Shown here piece by piece: positions 27,411-43,290 of a stretch of DNA of 64,000 nucleotides. The notes under the pieces are model-generated. The model did no database searches, was not told the DNA's origin, and saw only the letters and a list, made by a program, of their open reading frames with translations. The translations under genes were made by a program, and so were the position numbers. The number at the start of each line of letters is the position of its first letter. Within the stretch, counting starts at the first letter, position 1. Source of the stretch: an uncultured Chloroflexia bacterium (GTDB lineage: Bacteria; Chloroflexota; Dehalococcoidia; GIF9; UBA5629); the NCBI GenBank assembly GCA_963705905.1, contig OY970123.1, positions 774,919 through 838,918 of the forward strand, read 5' to 3'.

Positions 27411-29153
27411 TCAGGCGGCGGCCAGTTCCCTGGCACCGCTTTTCCATTTGTCGGCGTTCTTGACCAGGGCCTCTGCGCCCTTCAACATGACATTGCCGTT
27501 GCGTTCAGATCCAAGCATGGCAGCCAGCTCTTTGAGCCGGTTCTGCCCTTCGATCATCTCGACCCTGCTTGAAGCGCGGCCCGCCTCAATCTCCTTCAGC
27601 AACTTGAAATGGCAATCGCCGAAGCAGGCTATTTGCGGCAGGTGGGTGATACAGACAACCTGGTGGAAGGCAGCCAGCGAAGCCAGTTTCCTGCCTACCG
27701 ACTCGGCTCCTCTGCCCCCGACCCCCATATCTATCTCGTCGAAGATCAGAGTGGGAATTGGGTCGGCCATCTTTAAAGCGCTTTTAACGGCCAGCACAAT
27801 GCGGCTGGTCTCGCCGCCGGAGGCTATGGCGGCCATGGCCCTCATCGGTTCACCCGGGTTGGTGGCCACCTGGAACTCGATCTTGTCTATACCGTCGGAA
27901 GTATAGGCAAAGCATTTGCCTCCGGCGACGGCCAGTCCCTCCACATCCTCCCTGCGGGACAACACTATATCGAATTTGGCCCATGCCAGGTTTAGGTCCC
28001 CCAATTCTTCATTGACCAATTTAACGAGCTTGCCTGCCGCGCCCCGCCTGGCCAGCGAAAGCGCCTCGGCCTGCCTGCCCGCTTCTAACTTTAACTCTCT
28101 GACATCATTCTGCAGCTTTATTTTTCGCTCCTGCCTGTTTTGCAGGGACTCCAGCTCCGATTGCGCCTTTTTACGGAAATCAATAACGGCTTCTATCGTA
28201 TTGCCGTATTTGCGTTTCAACGTTTCAATAGTGCCGATTTGATGCTCGATTTCCTGAAGCCTGTCCTGGCTATTTTCTATTTTCTCGGCATAAGACCTCA
28301 GTTCCGAGGCAGCTTCTTCGACGCTTGCCAGGTCCGACTCCAGCCTTTCCCTGTAGACCGAAAGGTTGCCGTCAATAGACGATATGCCGCGCAGACCGCT
28401 CAACGTTTTGTGTATCAAAACCGAAGCCGACCTTTCATCACCGTACAGGTTGGCATAGGCATCCAGGCAGCCTTCGCAAATTGCTTCCGCCCGCCGCAGT
28501 ATTTCCCGCTCGTGATGCAATTCCTCTTCGTCAACTTCTTCGAGCTTCGTCCTGTCTATCTCTTCCACCTGATATTGCAGAAGGTCTGTATAGCCCTCAC
28601 GGTCTGCATTATCCATGGCAGCCAGCTCTTTCTCATGTGCCCTCAGATCGCCTACAATACGTTTAACGCCGTCGCGCATTTCCTGAAGATTGCCGAAAGT
28701 ATCCACCAGGGTCAACTGGTTGGCCGCGTCCAGCAGCGACAGGTACTCCATCTGGCCGTGTATATCAACCAGGTGCTTGCCCAACTGGCGCAGCGTTGAG
28801 AGGGGCACTGCACGGTTATTGATCCTGGCCACGCTCCTGCCGCTGTCCTGAAAATCCCGGGAAACCACGATCATCCCATTGGCCTCGGCTTCGATACCGC
28901 TTTCTTCCAAAATCATAGAAGCACGAGCGGCTGTGGCGTCGGCCGGCCAGAAAATAGCTTCAATCCGTGCCGAAGTCGTGCCGTTGCGTATGAGCCCGGC
29001 CGGAGCCCGTGCCCCCATTAAAAGACCGAGGGCATCCACCAGCAATGATTTGCCTGTCCCTTCATCCCCGCTGATCACATTCAGCCCGGGCACAAAATTC
29101 AGCGCTATGTCCTTGATAACGGCGAAATTCTTAATATGCAGCTCTCCTAACAT
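27411..29153 (-). CDS. recN: DNA repair protein RecN
   Basis: MLGELHIKNFAVIKD...ISGDEGTGKSLLVDAL Walker A, long coiled coil, and a C-terminal SMC-like signature (FDEIDMGVGG). Confidence 0.9.
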   Translation of the reverse strand: MLGELHIKNFAVIKDIALNFVPGLNVISGDEGTGKSLLVDALGLLMGARAPAGLIRNGTTSARIEAIFWPADATAARASMILEESGIEAEANGMIVVSRDFQDSGRSVARINNRAVPLSTLRQLGKHLVDIHGQMEYLSLLDAANQLTLVDTFGNLQEMRDGVKRIVGDLRAHEKELAAMDNADREGYTDLLQYQVEEIDRTKLEEVDEEELHHEREILRRAEAICEGCLDAYANLYGDERSASVLIHKTLSGLRGISSIDGNLSVYRERLESDLASVEEAASELRSYAEKIENSQDRLQEIEHQIGTIETLKRKYGNTIEAVIDFRKKAQSELESLQNRQERKIKLQNDVRELKLEAGRQAEALSLARRGAAGKLVKLVNEELGDLNLAWAKFDIVLSRREDVEGLAVAGGKCFAYTSDGIDKIEFQVATNPGEPMRAMAAIASGGETSRIVLAVKSALKMADPIPTLIFDEIDMGVGGRGAESVGRKLASLAAFHQVVCITHLPQIACFGDCHFKLLKEIEAGRASSRVEMIEGQNRLKELAAMLGSERNGNVMLKGAEALVKNADKWKSGARELAAA

Positions 29154-35839: not shown

Positions 35840-37384
35840 TTAACGGAAGACCGGCGGCAGAAGCTGCAGATAGTCCTTTCCGGTTATAGAACCGGCGCAG
35901 ATGAACCCTGAGTGAACGGCGGCTTCGATGCCGCCTTCGTTAATCCGCTTGCCGTATGTGTCTCCGGCAAAATACAGGCCGTCCACAGTGGGGCATTTCA
36001 CGTCTACCCATTCATCCTCGGGGTGCCGCCATAGTATACAGGTATCCCCGACGGTAAACAGCTTGAAATCAAGTGCTTTTCTCCAGCCCTGGAAGGCGGT
36101 GTCGGCAAACTTCAACATCCTGTCGATGACTATATCCACTTTCTTCTTATCATGCGCTTCGTCGGCCAGGATGCTGCTGGCCATGCCAAGGAGGTGCTTG
36201 CCTTCAGGGGCGCTGGTGGGCGCAATGGTGGACATGGATACTATATCCAGCGGGACATTGCCACTGAACAGCCCTTCGCTCTCGGGAATCAACATGGAAG
36301 TATGGTAGAAGGACCTGGGGTCCACTTCGAGCGCACAGAAATCGCTTACGGGCCTGGTCATGCCGAACTGGGCGGCGACCATAGAAGTATGTATTATCCT
36401 CTTGGTCAACCTGACAAATTCCGCCGGCAGAACGCTCTCCGGCAATAGTTTAAGCAGAGCTTTGGGCGGCGCAGTGCAGACAACCACAGGCGCTTTTATT
36501 TCCACGGTTTTGCCGTCGATTTCAGCCACAACTCCTTCCGTCTTTCCGTTACGTATGAGGACCTCTTTAACCGCGGCATCCGTGACTATATCGCCACCGC
36601 GGTCCGTGACCGCAGAGGCAAAACCTTCCGTGATAAAACGATGGCCGGGCGCTCCGGCGAAACCCCAGGAACCATTGGTTATATGCACACCGGTTTCCTG
36701 AACCTGTAAAAATACCTTCAGGTTTTCTCCGGCCGCGTTCATGGCCGGGTCGTTGATTATGGTCTGGAAAGTCCCGATGGCGTAGTGGAATTCCTGCGCG
36801 AGCTCATTCCCGGTTATGCCCTCCACCCAATCTTTGAGGGTCACATGGTCCAATTTCTCGGCTTCAGCTATGGTGCGTACCTGAAGCTTGCCTTTATGCA
36901 CATTGACCATCTCGGCGAAATCTTCGTCGCTCATCCAGCCATACTTGCCTTTCCTGCTTATTATGTAAGGTTTCCAGTCGTGGTCATACCAGACAAAGCC
37001 CACACTGGGGTAGAAAATAGAAGCCTTGTTAAACAGCGCCAGGGCCTGGCTCACACGTCCCCGGTTGGTAAACCAGGCGCCCCTGCCGCCGGCTTCGAAG
37101 ACATACCCGTCAAGCATCTTTTTCTTTATCAGCACGGGCAGGGCGGGCTCTGTCCTGTCGCTTACCCACGAGTGAGCGGCCAGCGCAAGCGTACGGCGAA
37201 ACTGGTCAGCATCCTTGATGCCTTCCCCGCGGAATGACGTGGCGCGGCCCCCGATCTGGGGCGCAGCCTCCAGGACAAGGACTTTCTTGCGTTCCTTACC
37301 TGATAGTATGGCGCCGACAACCGACCCGGCTATCCCGCAGCCAACTACTATAACATCATAGCTATCTGAGATTTTGACAGGCAT
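35840..37384 (-). CDS. FAD-dependent oxidoreductase (phytoene-desaturase/amine-oxidase-like)
   Basis: DVIVVGCGIAGSVVGAIL dinucleotide-binding motif. I placed the start at MPVKIS, which has a ggagggg RBS. The ORF track extends it upstream of that. Confidence 0.75.
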   Translation of the reverse strand: MPVKISDSYDVIVVGCGIAGSVVGAILSGKERKKVLVLEAAPQIGGRATSFRGEGIKDADQFRRTLALAAHSWVSDRTEPALPVLIKKKMLDGYVFEAGGRGAWFTNRGRVSQALALFNKASIFYPSVGFVWYDHDWKPYIISRKGKYGWMSDEDFAEMVNVHKGKLQVRTIAEAEKLDHVTLKDWVEGITGNELAQEFHYAIGTFQTIINDPAMNAAGENLKVFLQVQETGVHITNGSWGFAGAPGHRFITEGFASAVTDRGGDIVTDAAVKEVLIRNGKTEGVVAEIDGKTVEIKAPVVVCTAPPKALLKLLPESVLPAEFVRLTKRIIHTSMVAAQFGMTRPVSDFCALEVDPRSFYHTSMLIPESEGLFSGNVPLDIVSMSTIAPTSAPEGKHLLGMASSILADEAHDKKKVDIVIDRMLKFADTAFQGWRKALDFKLFTVGDTCILWRHPEDEWVDVKCPTVDGLYFAGDTYGKRINEGGIEAAVHSGFICAGSITGKDYLQLLPPVFR

Positions 37385-37488: not shown

Positions 37489-37938
37489 ATGATTCGACAA
37501 TTTGTTGCTGAGAACGCAAGGGAACGGGAAAGACTCCGCAACCTCGTAAATAAAATAACTGATGAGGAGTTAATGCTTACTCTTAATATCGAAGGGTGGA
37601 CGGTTGCGGCAGCCTTAGCACATTTAGCATTCTGGGATGATCGACGGCTGGTCCTTGTCCGGAAATGGAAGACACAGGGCATTACAACGTCGCCTATTGA
37701 TGCAGATATTACTAATGATGCGCTGGTCCGATTATTATTGGCAATCCCCCCAAGAAAAGCAGCCAACCTGTCAATACTCGCGTCTGAAGCACTCGATAAG
37801 GAATTGGAAGAAGCCTCTCCCGATCTGATAGCGGCAATCGAGGCCCTGGGAGATAGTCATGCTTTAAACCGGTCCATACACCGTAAGATGCATCTAGATG
37901 AAATTGAAGCCTTACTGAGAACTAAAGGTTCACGGTGA
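37489..37938 (+). CDS. DinB/YfiT-like four-helix-bundle protein (candidate thiol-dependent transferase family)
   Basis: EGWTVAAALAHLAFWD resembles the DinB_2 first-helix GWT..HL motif. His residues recur in later helices (IHRKMHLDE). aggaggt RBS. Confidence 0.45.
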   Translation: MIRQFVAENARERERLRNLVNKITDEELMLTLNIEGWTVAAALAHLAFWDDRRLVLVRKWKTQGITTSPIDADITNDALVRLLLAIPPRKAANLSILASEALDKELEEASPDLIAAIEALGDSHALNRSIHRKMHLDEIEALLRTKGSR

Positions 37939-39867
37939 CAGGTCCTGATTCAGCGGACCCGGCAAGGGCTCTGGCGTTGGGTTGGGCACGGGGCCGGGCA
38001 TCGGTTCAGGCGTGGGATTGGGCACAGGTCCGGGCATCGGTTCCGGCGTTGGGTTGGGCACCGGTCCCGGCATGGGCTCCGGGGTAGGATTGGGCACAGG
38101 CCCAGGCATCGGTCCCGGTGTGGGATTAGGTACGGGGCCGGGCATAGGGCCGGGTCCCGGCAAACTTGTGAACATCAGCGTGAACTCAAGGGAACCGCCG
38201 GGTGAAAGATACTGCGATGAAGGCGACACTCCGGCGAATTCTGCGTTCCAGGGTCCTCCGTCACGGAAATCGACGCTGTACGTCCCCTGCGGGGCTCCGT
38301 CAAAGGTTTGCGCTACGGTATTGCCGGTTTGGACATACGGCCCATGCAGCACGTAGTTTGCAGACCCGTACCAGGACTGTCCGTTCAGCGTTGCATCCAC
38401 CGTAACATATCCCCTGCTCTCCGCGGTGAAGTTCAGGATATATGCAATAGAGCCGCCCGCAGAAAGGTATTGCGTAGGCGACGGCGAGATTCCCGTCAAC
38501 GTAGCACCCACCGGGCCGCCCGAGTCATACACCAGGGTATAGTTCCCGGTGGGGTAACCGGTCAGCCAGCCCGGGATCGTATCCTCGCTATCAATCAGGC
38601 TGCCGTTGCTCAGGGAATAGCTTATAGGGCCTGAGCCCGGATTCGTCACCCACGGCTGGCCGTCCACCCTGGCATAGATAGTGATGTTGCCTGTGTCCTG
38701 CTTGCTGGCAAAGTTCAGGCTGAATACGATGGTGCGCCCGGCGGCCAGCGACTGCGTGGGCGCCAATGTGATGCCGGTCAGGTTAGCATTGGAAGGCCCC
38801 CCTCCCAGGTAAGTTACTGTGTAAACCCCTGTCGGCACACTGGAATAGGTGCGGGGCACCGAGTAGTCGACGTTCAGGAAAGGGTTGCTCAGGGAGAAGC
38901 TGGTCGAGCCGGACCACGGTGACCCGTCCAACGTGGCCTGCACTATGACGTTGCCGGACTGCGACTGTGTGTAGTAGGTAAATGTAAATTCGGCTGCCCT
39001 TCCTCCACTGATTACCAGGGTCGTATCCGGGATTATGCCTCCCAGCGAGGCGCCCGCCGGCCCGCCCGCTTTATAGCTGATACGGTAGGTGCCATCGGGG
39101 ACATTGGGCAGCTTTAGCGGCACAGACGCATAAGACCCTGAAATCGGCCCTGATATGGAATAGCTGACCGGGCCCGTCCAGGAGCCGCTGTTGAAATAGG
39201 CGGTAACCGACAAACTTGAAGCGGACGGCGCCGATGAAAAATTCAAGGTAAAGTCCACCTGACCGTTGGACGTCAGCGTTTGCGAGGCCGAGGGGGAAAC
39301 GCCCGTGAACACTGCATTCTGGGGCCCGCCGTCGTTGTATACCACGGTATACATTCCGGGGTCAACGCTTATGAATGTATGCGGCACGATGGAATCCCTG
39401 TCCTGAAAGTGGCCGTAGATAGTGTAGTCTATGCCACCGTTCCAGGGGGTGCCGTCCAGCATGGCGCTCACGTTTATCCTGGAGTTGCCGGGGGTCTGGA
39501 AGTTGAGCGTAAAGGAGACCGTGCCGCCGGCGCTGAGCTGCTGGGCCGGCGCCGGGGTTACATCGGCCAGTGCTGCCCCCGACGGCCCGCCGTAGTTGTA
39601 GGTGATGGAATACACGCCGGCTTTGACCCCATTGAAACTCCACGGCAGGTTATCTTCGGTATCGGTGAAGGGGCCGTTGACCTGGTAGCTAACGGGTCCC
39701 GCCCATCTTGCGCCATTATATGTGGCATTCACGTAGATGTTGCCCGTAGTTAGCGAGGGTATGGGAGGGCTGGGAGGCTTGGAACACCCCGCAAAAACCA
39801 GCACTAAAATTAAAGCAACTAATAGAACGCAGTATGCTTTCCGTATCATGGCCTTTTCCCTCTCCAA
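37930..39867 (-). CDS. surface lipoprotein with about seven tandem ~90-aa beta-sandwich repeats and a C-terminal Pro-rich tail
   Basis: Lipobox LVFAGC. Repeats share the pattern W.GP..Y...GP.......P..F..V..G.Y...Y..GGP..A.L....P...Q.L..GG...FTLNF. The tail is (PMPGPVPNPTPE)x5. Confidence 0.6.
   Translation of the reverse strand: MEREKAMIRKAYCVLLVALILVLVFAGCSKPPSPPIPSLTTGNIYVNATYNGARWAGPVSYQVNGPFTDTEDNLPWSFNGVKAGVYSITYNYGGPSGAALADVTPAPAQQLSAGGTVSFTLNFQTPGNSRINVSAMLDGTPWNGGIDYTIYGHFQDRDSIVPHTFISVDPGMYTVVYNDGGPQNAVFTGVSPSASQTLTSNGQVDFTLNFSSAPSASSLSVTAYFNSGSWTGPVSYSISGPISGSYASVPLKLPNVPDGTYRISYKAGGPAGASLGGIIPDTTLVISGGRAAEFTFTYYTQSQSGNVIVQATLDGSPWSGSTSFSLSNPFLNVDYSVPRTYSSVPTGVYTVTYLGGGPSNANLTGITLAPTQSLAAGRTIVFSLNFASKQDTGNITIYARVDGQPWVTNPGSGPISYSLSNGSLIDSEDTIPGWLTGYPTGNYTLVYDSGGPVGATLTGISPSPTQYLSAGGSIAYILNFTAESRGYVTVDATLNGQSWYGSANYVLHGPYVQTGNTVAQTFDGAPQGTYSVDFRDGGPWNAEFAGVSPSSQYLSPGGSLEFTLMFTSLPGPGPMPGPVPNPTPGPMPGPVPNPTPEPMPGPVPNPTPEPMPGPVPNPTPEPMPGPVPNPTPEPLPGPLNQDLSP
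37966..38160 (-). repeat. 36-nt in-frame tandem repeat (x5) encoding PMPGPVPNPTPE
   Basis: Near-identical 36-bp units (ggcacnggnccgggcatnggntcnggngtnggattg), visible as period-12 amino-acid repeats. Confidence 0.7.
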
Positions 39868-39937
39868 TACAATCTACGGTCTCCCCTGCCAATCGTCAAG
39901 ACCCAAGAGGCCATAATTTCCGGACCAATTTGCCTTT

Positions 39938-41023
39938 TCAGTTTCTCTGAGTGTTGACCGTATCCTTGTAAACCAATTTCAATGAAGGCAGTAGTGCTTG
40001 CTCTTCGAGAGATATAGCATCGCTTTTCCAGATTAATCTTTTTCGCATGGAAACATTGTCAGAATTATATTTAGGCATACAGGAGAAGACCTTATTTCCG
40101 ATACAACTACCTATCACACCAAAAATTAGAATCAATGTCAACGTTACAATAATCGTCCATTTATTCGAGCGGAATGATTTGAACTTAATAAAAATACATA
40201 GACTGCTGGGGTCGGTTTCTGACCAACGATAAGCTATGACTCTATGGAACGGATATTCTGTCCCTACATATGATGTCCAAATATGGCTTTCTAATTGCCT
40301 ACCGGCAGGTAGACTATGAGAAAAAATATAATCATCTTTGGCTTCTCTCATTAAGAAGAAATGTGATATTTTAAATGAGGTTTTTACCTCACCACGAATA
40401 AGCTCAAGCAAGGAAGCCGGTAAATTGCGTTTTTCGTTAACTCGAAAATCAACCAACTCAGTCTGTAGAAATGCCCCCTCCAGCATTGAATTAAGGGGGG
40501 GCTTATAAATATAGTTAATTTGTTTTACAAAATCACATTTTAGTCTAATGCGATAATAGTGTTTTTTATTTTTTAAATATTCAGGAACCTTTATGGAAAT
40601 TGTGGAACCACCGAATTGATTTAATATGGTTACATCATTCTCAATATCCAATTGATATATACTAAATAAGAATGTTCTATCCGCTCTACATATATCAATT
40701 GTTTTTTCTTGCGATCCACTAGAAACAATATAATCTGCGTTGAAAATGGCAGATACAAGTTCGGTTGAACTCCGAAATAGTGATCCCAAATCAGTCAAAT
40801 TAGATTCACTCAATTTGGCAGGTAAATAAATATTGATGGTATCCATTGGAGGGCTATTTCCCAATACCATCAAACCTATATCTAAAAAACAATTTACGCT
40901 TGAGTCGCCCAATAACCAGTAATTAAAGTGGCATTCCAAATTATAAGTATTGGCGGTTTCTTGCCCGACCTTTTGCCCCGTACACCAAATGGCAATACAG
41001 TTTACCGTTTTTCCCCTAATCAT
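39938..41023 (-). CDS. hypothetical protein with C-terminal transmembrane anchor (island gene 3)
   Basis: 361 aa with no recognisable domain. One predicted TM helix, WTIIVTLTLILIFGVIGSCIG, lies near the C-terminus. Confidence 0.5.
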   Translation of the reverse strand: MIRGKTVNCIAIWCTGQKVGQETANTYNLECHFNYWLLGDSSVNCFLDIGLMVLGNSPPMDTINIYLPAKLSESNLTDLGSLFRSSTELVSAIFNADYIVSSGSQEKTIDICRADRTFLFSIYQLDIENDVTILNQFGGSTISIKVPEYLKNKKHYYRIRLKCDFVKQINYIYKPPLNSMLEGAFLQTELVDFRVNEKRNLPASLLELIRGEVKTSFKISHFFLMREAKDDYIFSHSLPAGRQLESHIWTSYVGTEYPFHRVIAYRWSETDPSSLCIFIKFKSFRSNKWTIIVTLTLILIFGVIGSCIGNKVFSCMPKYNSDNVSMRKRLIWKSDAISLEEQALLPSLKLVYKDTVNTQRN

Positions 41024-41063
41024 TACTTTAACAACAATCCTTAATTCTAACTTGCTAATTTAT

Positions 41064-41432
41064 TTAGATATAGATGAATGATTGTGGAGGCCAAGAGAGC
41101 ATAAATTCATTGAGGGTATATGGTATTTCATAGCGTTTTGTTTCCCTAATCTTAATAGCATATCCAGTCTCGCGCTCTGCGAAATAACTAAAAAACTTTT
41201 TTTTAGTTATTCCAGCATGTTGGCCAGTTTTATACCAAAGAATATCAGGATGAGCCTGAAGAATCGTCCCTATCTGAAATTCGCCGATTATTCGTTTAAC
41301 AGGGTTAGACGCATATATGACCACTGTCGCCACTTCCTGTCGTTTGAAAATGGCCCTTCTATATTCATATTTTTTCGATCCTTCAAATATTTTAGTAGCA
41401 TATTCTGGTTTAATTGACAGCAATACTTTCAT
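41064..41432 (-). CDS. ASCH domain protein (island gene 2)
   Basis: MKVLLSIKPEYATKIFEGSKKYEYRRA carries the ASCH GxKxxExR signature (G-S-K-K-Y-E-Y-R) in a beta-barrel PUA-like context. Its start overlaps the 3' end of the upstream gene by 23 nt. Confidence 0.7.
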   Translation of the reverse strand: MKVLLSIKPEYATKIFEGSKKYEYRRAIFKRQEVATVVIYASNPVKRIIGEFQIGTILQAHPDILWYKTGQHAGITKKKFFSYFAERETGYAIKIRETKRYEIPYTLNEFMLSWPPQSFIYI

Positions 41433-42930
41433 CAGCCTGGCACTCCTTTAATATATCCTTTAGGTTTGGTACAGTTATTTGAGTGAAGCCCCTAGGGACG
41501 TCATTAGTGCTGGGTATAACGCCGATTTCGATAAGTTTCTGTAAATTAATCCTCTTAGGCAAAGAATACACATATAGAAAGTTGACAATAAATGGTCGAT
41601 ATAACGATCTTTTCCATTCCTGCGAAAGCGATCCGTTTGAAAAGACGCTACGTTTAGCTGCCAATTCAATAAAGTCGTTTTCGTCCTTAATATTAGTAAT
41701 AACATTCTCAACTACGCCTATTGTCGTAACAACACTATGATAATATGCTGGATATGCGTCGGCTGTACGATAAAAAACAATCACGTCACCCGAGCTTAAT
41801 CCTCTCTCCATGGATCTTGAAATGAAAACTTTACTAATTGCATTTCTATAAGGTTCATTTTCCACATAATCAGCGGGCGATTCTGTCTGCAGTATAGAAT
41901 CCGGGAATAATTCAGTGTGATATTTAGGATAGATGGATACAATAAAAATTCGTCCCCTTACTGAAAAGAAAGGATACGTTAATTTTGGACTTGACCGATC
42001 AGCCTTTTTTTCACATGACCTCACATATACAAGTTCCTTTCCTCCTAAGCCTACCTTTACACCATGATAGCGGAAGCCATAATCCTCCAATAGATTAATT
42101 AGCCGTTGCTGTTCAATTCGCTTATCAAAAATTGATACATATATTTCCTCAACTTTGAAAAGTAGGGCATTATCAAACACAATTTTTAGAAATCTTTCAC
42201 CTAAACGATATCCGTTCAATACGACTTTAAAACTCCCGATTTTAAGGCGTTTTTTGGGCAATAATGGGGGATTAATGTCAGAATATATCTCGTTTTTATC
42301 CTCAACCTTCAAATAAAGCAAGGCGATTAACTTATTCTCCGACAAACAAATGTAGACTGGTTCGTCAGCCTTCTTGTTAAACCACTCGGTATACTCAGGA
42401 TAATCTTCAATAAAGGAATTAAAAAAATCATCTGATAGTTTTAAGTTTCCGAAATATGACTTCCGTACCGAAAGAACCTTATAATCGGTTAAATTGGGAT
42501 GTTCCTTTGTGACTTTTTCAAGGAACGAATCTATCGTATAGACTTTATCGGCTACATTAAGTATTGAAGCTTTATTAATGATCTTTTTATCTTCAGTTAT
42601 TAATATATCGACACGTCCGGCAAATAGTTCATTAATAATAATTGTGTCGTTGACATCATTTTCATTTTTATCTAGTGGTCCTATGAGTGAATAAACGCTA
42701 TCCTTAATAGGAGCGGTTGTTTTAAGTATATTGTAATTCCTTAATTTAACTTCAAAAGTCTTCCGCACCTCGGGGTCCTGATGTTTTTCTATCTCCTCGA
42801 TAGTTAAATGGTGTATACATTTAGAATAATGAAGATTATCGAGCCACTTGAACAATACTCCAATGTCTTCATTAACCACCGTAGCGGCTTCACGATGAAT
42901 AATGATATTAGTGTCCAGGAGTACCTTCAC
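41410..42930 (-). CDS. multidomain protein: N-terminal PIN-like nuclease domain, central GNAT-like segment, C-terminal EVE/PUA-like domain (island gene 1)
   Basis: GTG start. MKVLLDTNIIIHRE plus downstream acidic residues (NDVNDTIIINE, LITEDKK) fit PIN. The C-terminus, GDVIVFYRTADAYPAYYHSVVTTIGVV, resembles the EVE GDxVxFYHS...G motif. Confidence 0.55.
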   Translation of the reverse strand: MKVLLDTNIIIHREAATVVNEDIGVLFKWLDNLHYSKCIHHLTIEEIEKHQDPEVRKTFEVKLRNYNILKTTAPIKDSVYSLIGPLDKNENDVNDTIIINELFAGRVDILITEDKKIINKASILNVADKVYTIDSFLEKVTKEHPNLTDYKVLSVRKSYFGNLKLSDDFFNSFIEDYPEYTEWFNKKADEPVYICLSENKLIALLYLKVEDKNEIYSDINPPLLPKKRLKIGSFKVVLNGYRLGERFLKIVFDNALLFKVEEIYVSIFDKRIEQQRLINLLEDYGFRYHGVKVGLGGKELVYVRSCEKKADRSSPKLTYPFFSVRGRIFIVSIYPKYHTELFPDSILQTESPADYVENEPYRNAISKVFISRSMERGLSSGDVIVFYRTADAYPAYYHSVVTTIGVVENVITNIKDENDFIELAAKRSVFSNGSLSQEWKRSLYRPFIVNFLYVYSLPKRINLQKLIEIGVIPSTNDVPRGFTQITVPNLKDILKECQADESIAVN

Positions 42931-43102
42931 ATATTATCCTAACGGAATATTATATGATAAATACATAACGATGCGTTTGAGAATATAAGGTCAAATACCT
43001 TTATCATGCTCGTGTAAGAATTTTAATTTTATTCTATATTGTTTAATGGAGATTATCAATCTAAAATACACTATGGTTCTAGTATGATCTTTATAGACTA
43101 TG

Positions 43103-43290
43103 CTATCGGAATACCAACAGCAGAAGCCGCAGATAGTCTTTTCCGGTTACTGATCCCAGCGCAGGTAAATCCTGGGTGAACAGTGGCTTCTATACCTACC
43201 TCGTTAATCCGCTTGCTGAATTTATCTCTGGCAAAATATAGTCCGTCCATAGTGGGGCAATTACGAACCATGCTCCCCTGAGTTTCTGCC
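43103..43290 (-). pseudogene. frameshifted 3' remnant of a paralog of the FAD-dependent oxidoreductase at 35840..37384
   Basis: About 75% nucleotide identity to 35840-36010. It translates to CPTMDGLYFARDKFSKRINEVGIEATVHPGFTCAGIS (compare CPTVDGLYFAGDTYGKRINEGGIEAAVHSGFICAGS), then a +1 insertion occurs. It retains an aligned stop. No upstream gene body follows, because the Zn-ADH gene begins at 43335. Confidence 0.6.

Follow-up and report, generated by a model that had tools for sequence, protein, structure and literature searches.

A candidate toxin-antitoxin or abortive infection module comprising PIN-GNAT-EVE, ASCH, and membrane proteins in an AT-rich chromosomal island of an uncultured Dehalococcoidia bacterium

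A short block on the chromosome of an uncultured Dehalococcoidia bacterium is richer in A and T than the DNA on either side of it and carries three genes on a single strand, raising the question of where these genes originated and whether together they could constitute a defense module. A preliminary description of the 64,000-nucleotide stretch of DNA that we analyzed, referred to here as the window, had proposed that the block was a horizontally acquired island encoding a candidate type IV-like restriction or abortive infection system, in a three-gene combination that was not recognized as a described one. The island and its components are as follows.

39900..43100, no strand: AT-rich island, horizontally acquired to judge from its composition (GC, 0.35, versus 0.52 for the host; z = -6.3)
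42931..43100, minus strand: AT-rich noncoding leader upstream of gene 1, presumed promoter region (GC, ~0.28)
41410..42930, minus strand: gene 1, GTG start, 506-aa PIN-GNAT-EVE protein (PADLOC PDC-M11A, core GevT-like)
41410..41432, minus strand: 23-nt overlap of the gene 1 stop region and the gene 2 start, ATGAAAGTATTGCTGTCAATTAA
41064..41432, minus strand: gene 2, ATG start, 122-aa ASCH protein (PDC-M11B, GevA-like, ZmASCH homolog)
39938..41023, minus strand: gene 3, ATG start, 361-aa tail-anchored membrane protein, dedicated accessory of ASCH/GNAT modules
43104..43262, minus strand: 3'-terminal amine-oxidase paralog remnant, abutting the island and outside the system

The compositional profile across 39 to 44 kb sets the block clearly apart, as had been claimed: the 1-kb segments at 40 to 43 kb have GC contents of 0.353, 0.365, and 0.342, with the rest of the window at about 0.46 to 0.61, and the 3.2-kb island as a whole has a GC content of 0.352, against 0.516 ± 0.026 (minimum, 0.457) for other 3.2-kb segments (z = -6.3). 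A fine GC profile places the borders at ~39,900 and ~43,100. Homologous modules in other genomes are also more AT-rich than their own flanks (68 of 69 loci); homologs 54 to 70% identical are distributed widely but patchily across many bacterial phyla and archaea, with copies on plasmids, conjugative ones included, and phages, and related Dehalococcoidia loci, though close, vary in content. The GC contrast and these identities uphold the earlier claim of horizontal acquisition, and on sequence grounds we regard the island as a mobile three-gene cassette, present here as a chromosomal, solitary, and intact copy. PUA-like domains and GNATs are common among translation-related enzymes, and in one NCBIfam family (NF008917) an ASCH domain of the gene 2 type is fused to ribosomal protein L22, as might be expected if the genes encoded a housekeeping modifier of RNA or protein, such as a tRNA or ribosomal-protein acetyltransferase, of odd composition. 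A GC content 16 points below that of the host, the variable content of close Dehalococcoidia loci, the existence of phage and plasmid copies, the matches to PADLOC candidate-defense models, and identities of 54 to 70% over bacterial phyla and archaea, which are incompatible with vertical descent, make such an explanation extremely improbable.

The sequence AGGA lies 7 nt 5' of the GTG start of gene 1, the start codon given in the preliminary description. The leader contains a sigma-70-like match (positions 43059 to 43031), but matches of this kind are no more numerous than in shuffled sequences, so that no promoter is demonstrated there, and a search of its 170 nt for an upstream open reading frame found none. 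The decayed paralog fragment reported beside the island is confirmed: positions 43104 to 43262 are 79.9% identical over 159 nt (E = 9e-36) to positions 35841 to 35998, the 3' end of an intact amine-oxidase gene (annotated PF01593). Genes around the island within the window are metabolic, with no restriction-modification (RM), CRISPR, or other defense neighbors, and the suggested defense-island setting does not apply to this copy; its location among metabolic genes is an observation against a defense reading.

Gene 1 is composed of three domains, given here with the residues that characterize them.

42496..42930, minus strand: PIN domain, VapC-like, residues ~1 to 145 (D6, E46, D95, and D114 intact)
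42016..42483, minus strand: GNAT acetyltransferase domain, residues ~150 to 305 (invariant Y177, W183, K230, and E299)
41413..41973, minus strand: C-terminal PUA-like (EVE/ASCH-type) barrel, residues ~320 to 506 (invariant K367 and near-invariant Y387)

The PIN and EVE/PUA-like domains had been recognized previously, and the acidic PIN residues are where they were expected, but the GNAT domain, which occupies the middle third of the protein and is its most conserved part, had been overlooked. The order PIN, GNAT, and EVE/PUA-like is that required for the PADLOC candidate system PDC-M11, and the PDC-M11A model (PDLC04422) aligns with residues 1 to 505 over positions 1 to 500 of its 501-position profile (E = 1.3e-207). 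In gene 1 itself the Pfam PIN match falls below threshold and the GNAT domain is detected by profile or fold only; Pfam matches to EVE, GNAT, and PIN were obtained across 83 diverse relatives. The PIN fold of the VapC type is an RNase in characterized toxins. About one-quarter of the relatives of gene 1 have no PIN domain and in one more subgroup it is degenerate, the GNAT plus PUA-like core being the invariant part of the family; because the family can thus dispense with the PIN domain, the central mechanism cannot be RNA cleavage by this domain.

These observations bear on type IV-like restriction, in which EVE and ASCH domains would read modified invader DNA, the PIN domain would cut it, and the membrane protein would be an abortive infection effector. 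PUA-like/EVE and ASCH folds, which may bind a modified base in DNA or in RNA, are present in genes 1 and 2; in other systems, EVE-type domains are established readers of 5mC and 5hmC in DNA and occur in fusions with restriction nucleases, and Bell et al. infer DNA binding by ASCH from HTH-ASCH and HsdS-ASCH fusions (PMC7641849). RM genes are also found among the neighbors of family loci, and at one locus type I RM genes (HsdR-HsdM-HsdS) lie directly 5' of an ASCH-gene 3-GNAT triad. However, the VapC-type PIN is the sole nuclease domain found by Pfam, NCBIfam, and PADLOC searches, with HNH, PD-(D/E)xK, PLD, or similar DNA endonuclease domains missing, and it is the domain so often lost or degenerate among relatives; we consider the type IV-like mechanism of the preliminary description to be quite improbable.

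Gene 2 is an ASCH protein, as first described, scoring 25.0 bits against the Pfam ASCH model (gathering threshold, 21.2) and carrying the GxKxxExR motif as G18-S-K20-K-Y-E23-Y-R25. It matches the PDC-M11B model (PDLC04425) with an E value of 6.9e-49 and the ZmASCH structures (PDB 5GUS/5GUQ) with an E value of 9e-12; Y40, K46, and S118 correspond to ZmASCH Y47, K53, and S128, the three residues probed by mutagenesis, and by sequence the protein belongs to the ZmASCH subgroup of the ASCH domain. The same overlap of 23 nt recurs in 75 of 89 homologous loci and also in the phage gene pair GevT/GevA, and gene 2 lies directly 3' of gene 1 in 75 of 80 loci, four of the five exceptions being contig ends. 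Gene 3 follows gene 2 after a spacer of 40 nt, so strict translational coupling applies to genes 1 and 2 only, and of the three coupled, codirectional genes first envisaged, the shared strand and the overlap stand and the coupling of gene 3 does not. ASCH domains are also fused to gene 1 homologs, at the N terminus (~620-aa forms) or the C terminus (P0239), and on alpha-proteobacterial plasmids an (HTH-)ASCH gene is found directly 5' of the gene 1 homolog; the antitoxin gene comes first in the usual toxin-antitoxin order. An AAA_17 ATPase accompanies 21 of the 80 loci.

A base acetylation system, in which the GNAT would acetylate a DNA or RNA base, the EVE and ASCH domains would act as reader and/or eraser, and the modification would mark self or invader, would agree with several of these features: the invariance of the GNAT plus PUA-like core, the presence of two PUA-like domains per acetyltransferase, the constant presence of ASCH and its fusion in some homologs, and the recurrence of a small stand-alone GNAT with ASCH and gene 3. 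The gene 2 product might then act as a deacetylase, in the manner of YqfB, an ac4C amidohydrolase. We think this explanation unlikely; according to Bell et al., base acetylation was proposed by Iyer et al. in 2013 (PMC7641849).

The (PIN)-GNAT-EVE plus ASCH operon was reported by Bell, Wolf, and Koonin in 2020 (BMC Biol, PMC7641849), who credit it to Iyer et al. and, by whose account, a toxin-antitoxin or defense role has been predicted for the family since 2013. Those researchers described the modules as all uncharacterized at that time, noted that they are associated with loci for type I RM and CRISPR, and suggested tRNA or aminoacyl-tRNA as the target. PADLOC took up the family because its members lie within loci for BREX, DISARM, or type I RM, and PDC systems are candidate systems (Payne et al. 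2024 preprint, 10.1101/2024.01.29.577857). On the evidence of their sequences, genes 1 and 2 correspond to this operon and to PDC-M11, as well as to GevT/GevA; the pair is already catalogued and thus known as a prediction rather than new, contrary to the earlier statement that the combination was not a described system, and the PDC-M11A and PDC-M11B matches support the view that it is a candidate defense module. The literature searched yielded no experiments on, or published mechanism for, any PIN-GNAT-EVE member. The family is large: clustered at 50% identity, it has 1,753 representatives, from bacteria, archaea, plasmids, and phages.

What distinguishes the present locus is gene 3, whose product is anchored by a single helix.

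40088..40162, minus strand: gene 3 transmembrane helix, C-terminal, residues ~288 to 312 (Kyte-Doolittle maximum, 2.56)

This helix, noted previously, is the sole hydrophobic segment of the protein, appears at residues 288 to 315 in the AF2 model, and is conserved in place among homologs; a search of gene 3 for a signal peptide found none. The remainder includes a cytoplasmic beta-sandwich domain, for which fold matches are at 6 to 10% identity only; kinship with the M1-aminopeptidase N-terminal domain or Ost1 (ribophorin I) was considered and rejected, there being no sequence or catalytic-domain homology. Gene 3 matched no family in any library searched, is not modeled by PADLOC, and is not mentioned in the published descriptions of (PIN)-GNAT-EVE plus ASCH systems that were examined, and the three-gene form appears to be undescribed so far. 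Co-occurrence in other genomes, strong for genes 1 and 2, extends to gene 3: among 69 informative loci from an independent collection, an ASCH and/or GNAT(-EVE) gene adjoins the gene 3 homolog in 63, with varying gene orders, and gene 3 is present in 12 of the 80 gene 1 loci. Tentatively, and with more doubt than confidence, we suggest that gene 3 represents a hitherto undescribed tail-anchored membrane protein family whose members are obligate partners to ASCH/GNAT modules, defining a membrane-coupled GNAT-EVE/ASCH subtype if they serve as sensors or localizers. The partners would be PIN-GNAT-EVE, GNAT-EVE, or minimal stand-alone GNAT proteins; the most divergent members occur with a small HNH nuclease instead. 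If this suggestion is true, gene 3 might, for instance, hold the toxin at the membrane, the site of phage genome entry, or free it on envelope perturbation, a trigger logic that would be new for GNAT-EVE/ASCH systems.

We suggest, with a probability of roughly 0.55, that genes 1 and 2 form an RNA-directed toxin-antitoxin or abortive infection module to which gene 3 adds an optional membrane subunit. Gene 1 would encode the toxic effector: its EVE/PUA-like barrel would pick out a nucleic acid, most plausibly modified RNA (tRNA or aminoacyl-tRNA), its GNAT domain would acetylate the chosen target, and its VapC-like PIN domain would be able to cleave RNA, resulting in a block in translation. The gene 2 product, a putative binder of single-stranded nucleic acid, would be produced in a fixed ratio to gene 1 by virtue of the overlap and would restrain the effector, either as its antitoxin or as a regulatory subunit, until the effector is freed by infection or stress, leading to growth arrest or to abortive infection with an anti-phage role; gene 3 would reside at the inner membrane, and the probable task of its beta-sandwich domain is to tether the complex there or to regulate it. 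The toxin-antitoxin element of this reading derives from the 42% and 49% identities to GevT and GevA and from the antitoxin-first (HTH-)ASCH order on alpha-proteobacterial plasmids, and the RNA-directed element from the VapC-like PIN tetrad, the homology of gene 2 to ZmASCH, and the ASCH-L22 fusion. The mobility of the module and the RM genes near family loci, among them the type I RM genes beside one triad, favor the anti-phage element. Two points weigh against an RNA target: elsewhere, EVE domains read modified DNA, and the ASCH partner is argued by Bell et al. to bind DNA (PMC7641849). Fusion of ASCH to gene 1 homologs in cis fits less well with a labile proteic antitoxin than with a cofactor or regulatory subunit, and the effector-first order found here, atypical of type II systems, is a further observation against the toxin-antitoxin reading.

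The preferred reading overlaps with that of a selfish addiction cassette without a defense role, loss of which would kill the cell and which would hitch-hike on mobile DNA, since addiction and defense are combined in many toxin-antitoxin modules. The GenBank toxin/antitoxin annotation, the solitary position of this copy amid metabolic genes without defense neighbors, the plasmid copies, conjugative ones among them, and the very wide, patchy spread are compatible with such a cassette. Against it, the pair in the lambdoid phage PhiR47_2 sits just 3' of cI, the position of the rexAB exclusion genes in lambda, and family members are associated with loci for type I RM and CRISPR (PMC7641849) and reside within loci for BREX, DISARM, or type I RM (10.1101/2024.01.29.577857); we judge pure addiction rather improbable. 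The locus adds no new system and is a clean, intact, solitary example in an uncultured Dehalococcoidia host; what is new is the tight linkage of a membrane-anchored third component to PIN-GNAT-EVE/ASCH modules, and a defined three-gene construct allows the question of what membrane tethering adds to be posed. Because two toxin folds and two reader domains of the PUA-like type come together in this family, a solved mechanism would show how acetylation and cleavage are linked to a mark on nucleic acid.

Among known systems, ZmASCH of Zymomonas mobilis (PDB 5GUQ/5GUS) binds single-stranded nucleic acid and cleaves single-stranded RNA in a Mg-dependent manner, the latter in vitro only (Kim et al. 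2017, PMC5615036). Its identity to gene 2 is modest, and the PDB entry describes it as HTH domain containing, whereas gene 2 is a bare ASCH domain. TacT, AtaT, and ItaT are GNAT toxins of type II systems with DUF1778/RHH antitoxins, and these toxins and VapBC share with gene 1 the GNAT and four-acid PIN folds, respectively. The target class, tRNA or aminoacyl-tRNA, is plausibly shared as well, as Bell et al. suggested (PMC7641849). Unlike those systems, gene 1 joins both toxin folds and a PUA-like reader in one polypeptide, and its partner is an ASCH protein encoded 3' rather than an RHH, AbrB, or DUF1778 protein encoded 5'; at the level of sequence gene 1 belongs to neither group. Membership in TacAT/AtaRT/ItaRT was rejected, a GNAT-fold toxin being present but no RHH/DUF1778 antitoxin gene upstream, where the 170-nt leader is free of open reading frames; so was membership in VapBC, the PIN acidic tetrad being present but without an upstream VapB frame and as part of a 506-aa protein. 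In SNIPE (bioRxiv 10.1101/2025.11.03.685801), a transmembrane segment sets defense activity at the inner membrane, limiting self-damage; there is no homology with gene 3, the SNIPE segment being N terminal within the nuclease and gene 3 a separate tail-anchored beta-sandwich subunit, and any likeness would be a speculative functional analogy.

Much closer are GevT and GevA of Escherichia phage PhiR47_2 (GenBank PV340567.1), which are 42% identical to the core of gene 1 and 49% identical to gene 2, have the same gene order and overlap, and, in the case of GevA, share with gene 2 the N terminus MKVLLSIKPE. GevT (357 aa) is without a PIN domain, and the pair is without gene 3 and is located in the immunity region of a lambdoid prophage; "GevT toxin" and "GevA antitoxin" are the depositor's annotation, for which we found no paper. 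The closest counterpart is the operon of Bell et al., PDC-M11, which has the same three-domain protein with an ASCH partner directly 3' and a 23-nt overlap, both models of which are matched at full length, and which has the same broad, patchy, and mobile distribution; the copy described here differs from it in being without the AAA_17 ATPase and in carrying gene 3 in addition.

The AT-rich block reported in the preliminary description is real. Its GC content over 3.2 kb is 0.352, against 0.516 +/- 0.026 for all other 3.2-kb windows (minimum, 0.457; z = -6.3), and a compositional profile sets it apart from the rest of the window: the 1-kb bins at 40 to 43 kb have GC contents of 0.353, 0.365, and 0.342, compared with 0.43 to 0.61 elsewhere, with transitions at about 39,900 and 43,100 in a 200-nt profile. 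The three co-directional genes described there, the GTG start of the first, and its overlap with the second were all seen in the sequence:

41410..42930, minus strand, g1, ORF of 506 aa with a GTG start
41064..41432, minus strand, g2, ORF of 122 aa
39938..41023, minus strand, g3, ORF of 361 aa

The g1/g2 overlap is exactly 23 nt, and 40 nt separate g2 from g3. An AGGA lies 7 nt 5' of the g1 GTG, a start position shared with homologs; a g3 start at codon 7, suggested by the MNCIAIW N terminus of its homologs, was ruled out, as that codon is GTA, which is not a start. Promoter matches were no more numerous than in shuffled sequence.

The 10 kb on each flank, like the remainder of the 64 kb, carry metabolism and housekeeping genes, among them those for alcohol and 3-hydroxyacyl-CoA dehydrogenases, 2-oxoacid:ferredoxin oxidoreductase, HpaB, amine oxidase, glyoxalase, RidA, two-component systems, and phosphate transport. 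The decayed fragment noted earlier at 43.1 to 43.3 kb is genuine: positions 43104-43262 share 79.9% identity across 159 nt with the final ~52 codons (35841-35998) of an intact amine-oxidase gene about 7.2 kb away, and represent a remnant of the 3' end of a paralog. The stop codon of this remnant is on the island side and the truncated 5' end on the side of the alcohol dehydrogenase stop, a layout that suggests an old deletion or rearrangement where the island inserted. Neither direct nor inverted repeats were found at the island flanks, no tRNA or integrase signal was found in the window, and there was no Rfam RNA family at 39.5 to 43.5 kb; given these blanks and the metabolic flanks, the island stands alone, an insertion next to the amine-oxidase remnant. 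Two further sets of PADLOC matches, outside the island, were set aside: each concerns a lone component and looks like generic cross-matching between domains. One, to MzaA, is a sensor kinase; the other comprises mad3, LmuB, and GajA matches to a 580-aa ATPase (27411-29153, minus strand), full length for mad3 (E 3e-23) and restricted to the N termini for LmuB and GajA; this protein is probably an SMC/RecN-like ABC ATPase with a housekeeping rather than a defence role. Beyond the other end of the operon, with its start codon 70 nt past the g3 stop, lies a gene (37930-39867, minus strand) for a predicted 645-aa surface protein that has a hydrophobic, signal-like stretch at its N terminus, about seven beta-rich repeat units of ~90 aa with a faint Big_3 match, and about five copies of a C-terminal proline-rich repeat, PGPMPGPVPNPTPE.

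Taken singly, g1 gives little away: Pfam yields only a sub-threshold PIN_3 match, a sequence search of the PDB found no match, and a weak GNAT match emerged with a profile only. The PADLOC candidate defence model PDC-M11A nevertheless covers it end to end (E 1.3e-207), and an exhaustive search gathered a family of 1,753 cluster representatives with three architectures: ~500 aa, as in g1; ~355 aa, beginning near g1 residue 150 and devoid of PIN; and ~620 aa, in which an additional N-terminal ASCH domain is the source of ASCH matches. When 83 diverse relatives were run singly against Pfam, matches were to PIN_3 (16), EVE (15), Acetyltransf_1 (9), ASCH (9), and DUF3850 (7), and on account of these matches we assign g1 the architecture PIN-GNAT-EVE; one relative, P0239, has ASCH at its C terminus. 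The PIN and EVE ends recognized in the preliminary description thus hold, and the central GNAT had been overlooked. All invariant columns (Y177, W183, K230, E299, P320, and K367) fall within the GNAT-PUA core. The PIN domain is missing from a quarter of the family, and each of its acidic residues is retained in just 73 to 79% of PIN-bearing relatives, although the tetrad (D6, E46, D95, and D114) is complete in the window's copy. Judged from the alignments, the GNAT middle is the most important part of the protein. In about 20% of PIN-bearing relatives, D6G (with N8D) occurs together with D114N (residues 6, 8, and 114 of A1, the alignment of diverse relatives), which suggests a clade in which PIN may have been inactivated or re-purposed while the GNAT-PUA core stayed invariant. 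Type IV-like DNA restriction, the first function proposed for the operon, in which reader domains for modified bases would be paired with a nuclease, draws on the PIN and PUA-like folds; it is improbable, since the PIN is of the VapC type and dispensable and the GNAT is left without explanation.

The identification of the second gene as an ASCH protein stands: g2 scores above the Pfam ASCH threshold, matches PADLOC PDC-M11B (E 6.9e-49), and aligns over its full length with ZmASCH (PDB 5GUS/5GUQ; E 9e-12). ZmASCH binds single-stranded nucleic acid and shows Mg-dependent cleavage in vitro of ssRNA but not ssDNA, and mutagenesis has implicated Y47, K53, and S128 (PMC5615036); the aligned residues of g2, Y40, K46, and S118, are identical. 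On alpha-proteobacterial plasmids, homologs of ZmASCH lie directly upstream of g1 homologs, which ties the sole available ASCH biochemistry to the g1/g2 system. The "unknown domain" of NCBIfam NF008917 ("50S ribosomal protein L22/unknown domain fusion protein") is also a g2-type ASCH (E 6e-13; profile positions 191-310 of 311), a fusion which hints that this ASCH subgroup may bind ribosomal or other RNA.

The best 80 of 547 genomic relatives of g1, 54 to 70% identical to it and identified with a tighter alignment as the query, come from Chloroflexota, Deltaproteobacteria, Bacteroidota, Bacillota, Planctomycetota, Acidobacteriota, and cyanobacteria, as well as from DPANN archaea, Bathyarchaeia, and Methanoperedenaceae. 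A g2 homolog lies directly downstream in 75 of these 80 loci, four of the five exceptions being contig ends, and the 23-nt overlap is conserved in 75 of 89 loci. The module has a lower GC content than its flanks in 68 of 69 loci, by a mean of 9.5 GC points, and low GC therefore belongs to a mobile module and not to this site. That the module encodes a housekeeping enzyme is scarcely credible. An AAA_17-type ATPase (~178 aa) lies directly upstream in 21 loci, counted with a search seed picked by its Walker-A motif, in agreement with the literature. Restriction-modification (RM) genes near g1 loci, given as raw counts and not as enrichment, were N6_N4_Mtase (4), ResIII (3), and Methylase_S (2), and type I specificity-subunit models match three further neighbours. 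Two Dehalococcoidia relatives (L009:3611-4150 and L012:9389-9928) have a conserved multi-pass membrane protein of ~179 aa directly upstream of the g1 homolog; unrelated to g3 and the AAA_17 ATPase alike, this protein may belong to the host or be a further accessory. A PIN-GNAT-EVE homolog is also encoded by the Methanothermobacter phage psiM100 as ORFD (AF301375.1/NC_002628.3, 8233-9522), inside "inserted fragment IFa," with 26% identity over 85% of g1.

As first described, g3 has a single C-terminal transmembrane helix (~288-312 by hydropathy, signal peptide absent) and no recognizable family, with no match in Pfam, NCBIfam, PADLOC, or PHROGs; a fold comparison with BFVD viral structures gave nothing meaningful (TM-scores <= 0.27). 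Alignment of its 111 homologs shows a conserved soluble region of ~280 residues and, after it, one hydrophobic helix. Invariant residues of the soluble region, many of them polar or aromatic, include P68, F94, N95, Y156, R158, R160, D192, R199, R242, L244, E245, W249, Y252, and Y265, and an invariant TELVDFRxNEKRN motif contains D192, R194, N196, E197, and R199. Most homologs terminate just past the helix, and g3 is therefore predicted to be tail-anchored with a cytoplasmic domain; the ~45-residue tail beyond the helix is unique to the window's copy. Homologs of g3 occur in 12 of the best 80 g1 loci, after g2, between g1 and g2, or upstream on either strand. Reciprocally, an independent metagenome collection supplied 80 loci with g3 homologs; 69 were informative, and a g1 and/or g2 homolog adjoins g3 in 63 of them. 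The order is g1-g2-g3 in 28 loci and g1-g3-g2 in 10, half of the latter with the ATPase upstream, and g2-g3 and divergent ATPase-g2/g3 arrangements also occur. In 21 loci lacking g1 (L119-L166, e.g., L131:7101-7577 and L147:6480-7064; L168:6498-7094), g3 is followed by an ORF of 154 to 199 aa; these are stand-alone GNATs, with Pfam Acetyltransf_10/1/7 matches, several above threshold, and the YPEFxxW(Y/F) motif of the g1 GNAT, giving ASCH-g3-GNAT triads. A conjugative Pseudomonas plasmid places the small GNAT alongside a full GNAT-EVE/ASCH/AAA_17 set, in the order ATP-binding protein, N-acetyltransferase (GNAT-EVE), ASCH with the 23-nt overlap, small GNAT, and an oppositely oriented g3-like gene. 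Such linkage in varied orders argues that g3, though optional, is dedicated to ASCH/GNAT modules as an accessory and is no hitch-hiker. At L131:3-7577, a type I RM set, HsdR-HsdM-HsdS, has ASCH-g3-small GNAT immediately after it in the same orientation, an instance of the type I RM embedding by which PDC systems were nominated. The most divergent g3-like proteins (~26% identity) adjoin neither ASCH nor GNAT; a small HNH endonuclease gene (113 to 127 aa) directly precedes them with an 8-nt overlap (L157:5634-7053 and L162:5676-7056; also L160, L161, L164, and L165), and the pair may form a separate two-gene system using the same membrane protein family.

The three folds of g1, its intact PIN tetrad and invariant GNAT-PUA core, the conserved nucleic acid-binding residues of ZmASCH type in g2, the fusion of ASCH to the N or C terminus of g1 homologs, the conserved coupling overlap, the spread across domains of life, and the tight genomic linkage of g3 were all seen here. 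We suggest that g1 is a toxic effector whose PUA-like barrel would pick out a (modified) RNA that the GNAT would acetylate and the PIN domain cut, tRNA or aminoacyl-tRNA being the most plausible candidate; that g2 holds g1 in check as an antitoxin or regulatory subunit until infection or stress frees it and translation stops; and that g3 may tether or regulate the complex at the inner membrane. To this reading overall we assign a probability of roughly 0.55, and for its mechanism part the odds are about even. A purely selfish addiction module, in which g1 and g2 would serve only their own persistence, overlaps this explanation and is distinctly unlikely on its own.

That g1 and g2 belong to the PIN-GNAT-EVE plus ASCH family is near certain, and their core adds one more member to a known family that is predicted but unsolved in mechanism. 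The preliminary reading of the operon as a candidate defence module is therefore upheld, and the novelty of its two-gene core is not. Bell, Wolf and Koonin (2020, PMC7641849) associated PIN-GNAT-EVE with type I RM and CRISPR loci and GNAT-EVE with prophages, noted that not one module had been characterised, and made no mention of a membrane partner; as they credit it, Iyer et al. (2013) gave the first description and proposed DNA-base acetylation. We consider a base-acetylation writer/reader/eraser system along those lines unlikely. The PADLOC PDC set comprises 145 untested candidates, nominated ("guilt-by-embedding") because they lie within loci for BREX, DISARM, or type I RM (10.1101/2024.01.29.577857). 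Literature searches on GevT, GevA, GevAT, and PhiR47 found no relevant paper behind the annotation of PV340567.1, the GenBank entry for phage PhiR47_2, in which a pair is named "GevT toxin" and "GevA antitoxin." Lambdoid E. coli phages in the phage collection carry the GNAT-EVE core, and in PhiR47_2 GevT is 42% identical to the g1 core (E 3e-63) and GevA 49% identical to g2 (E 1e-43). The two phage genes overlap by 23 nt, as do g1 and g2, and sit immediately after cI and before kil, the position that rexAB occupies in lambda. As far as the literature searched and four family libraries extend, the three-gene form with a tail-anchored g3 is an undescribed variant; to a specialist the core will be unsurprising, and the linkage of g3 to it offers a useful lead.
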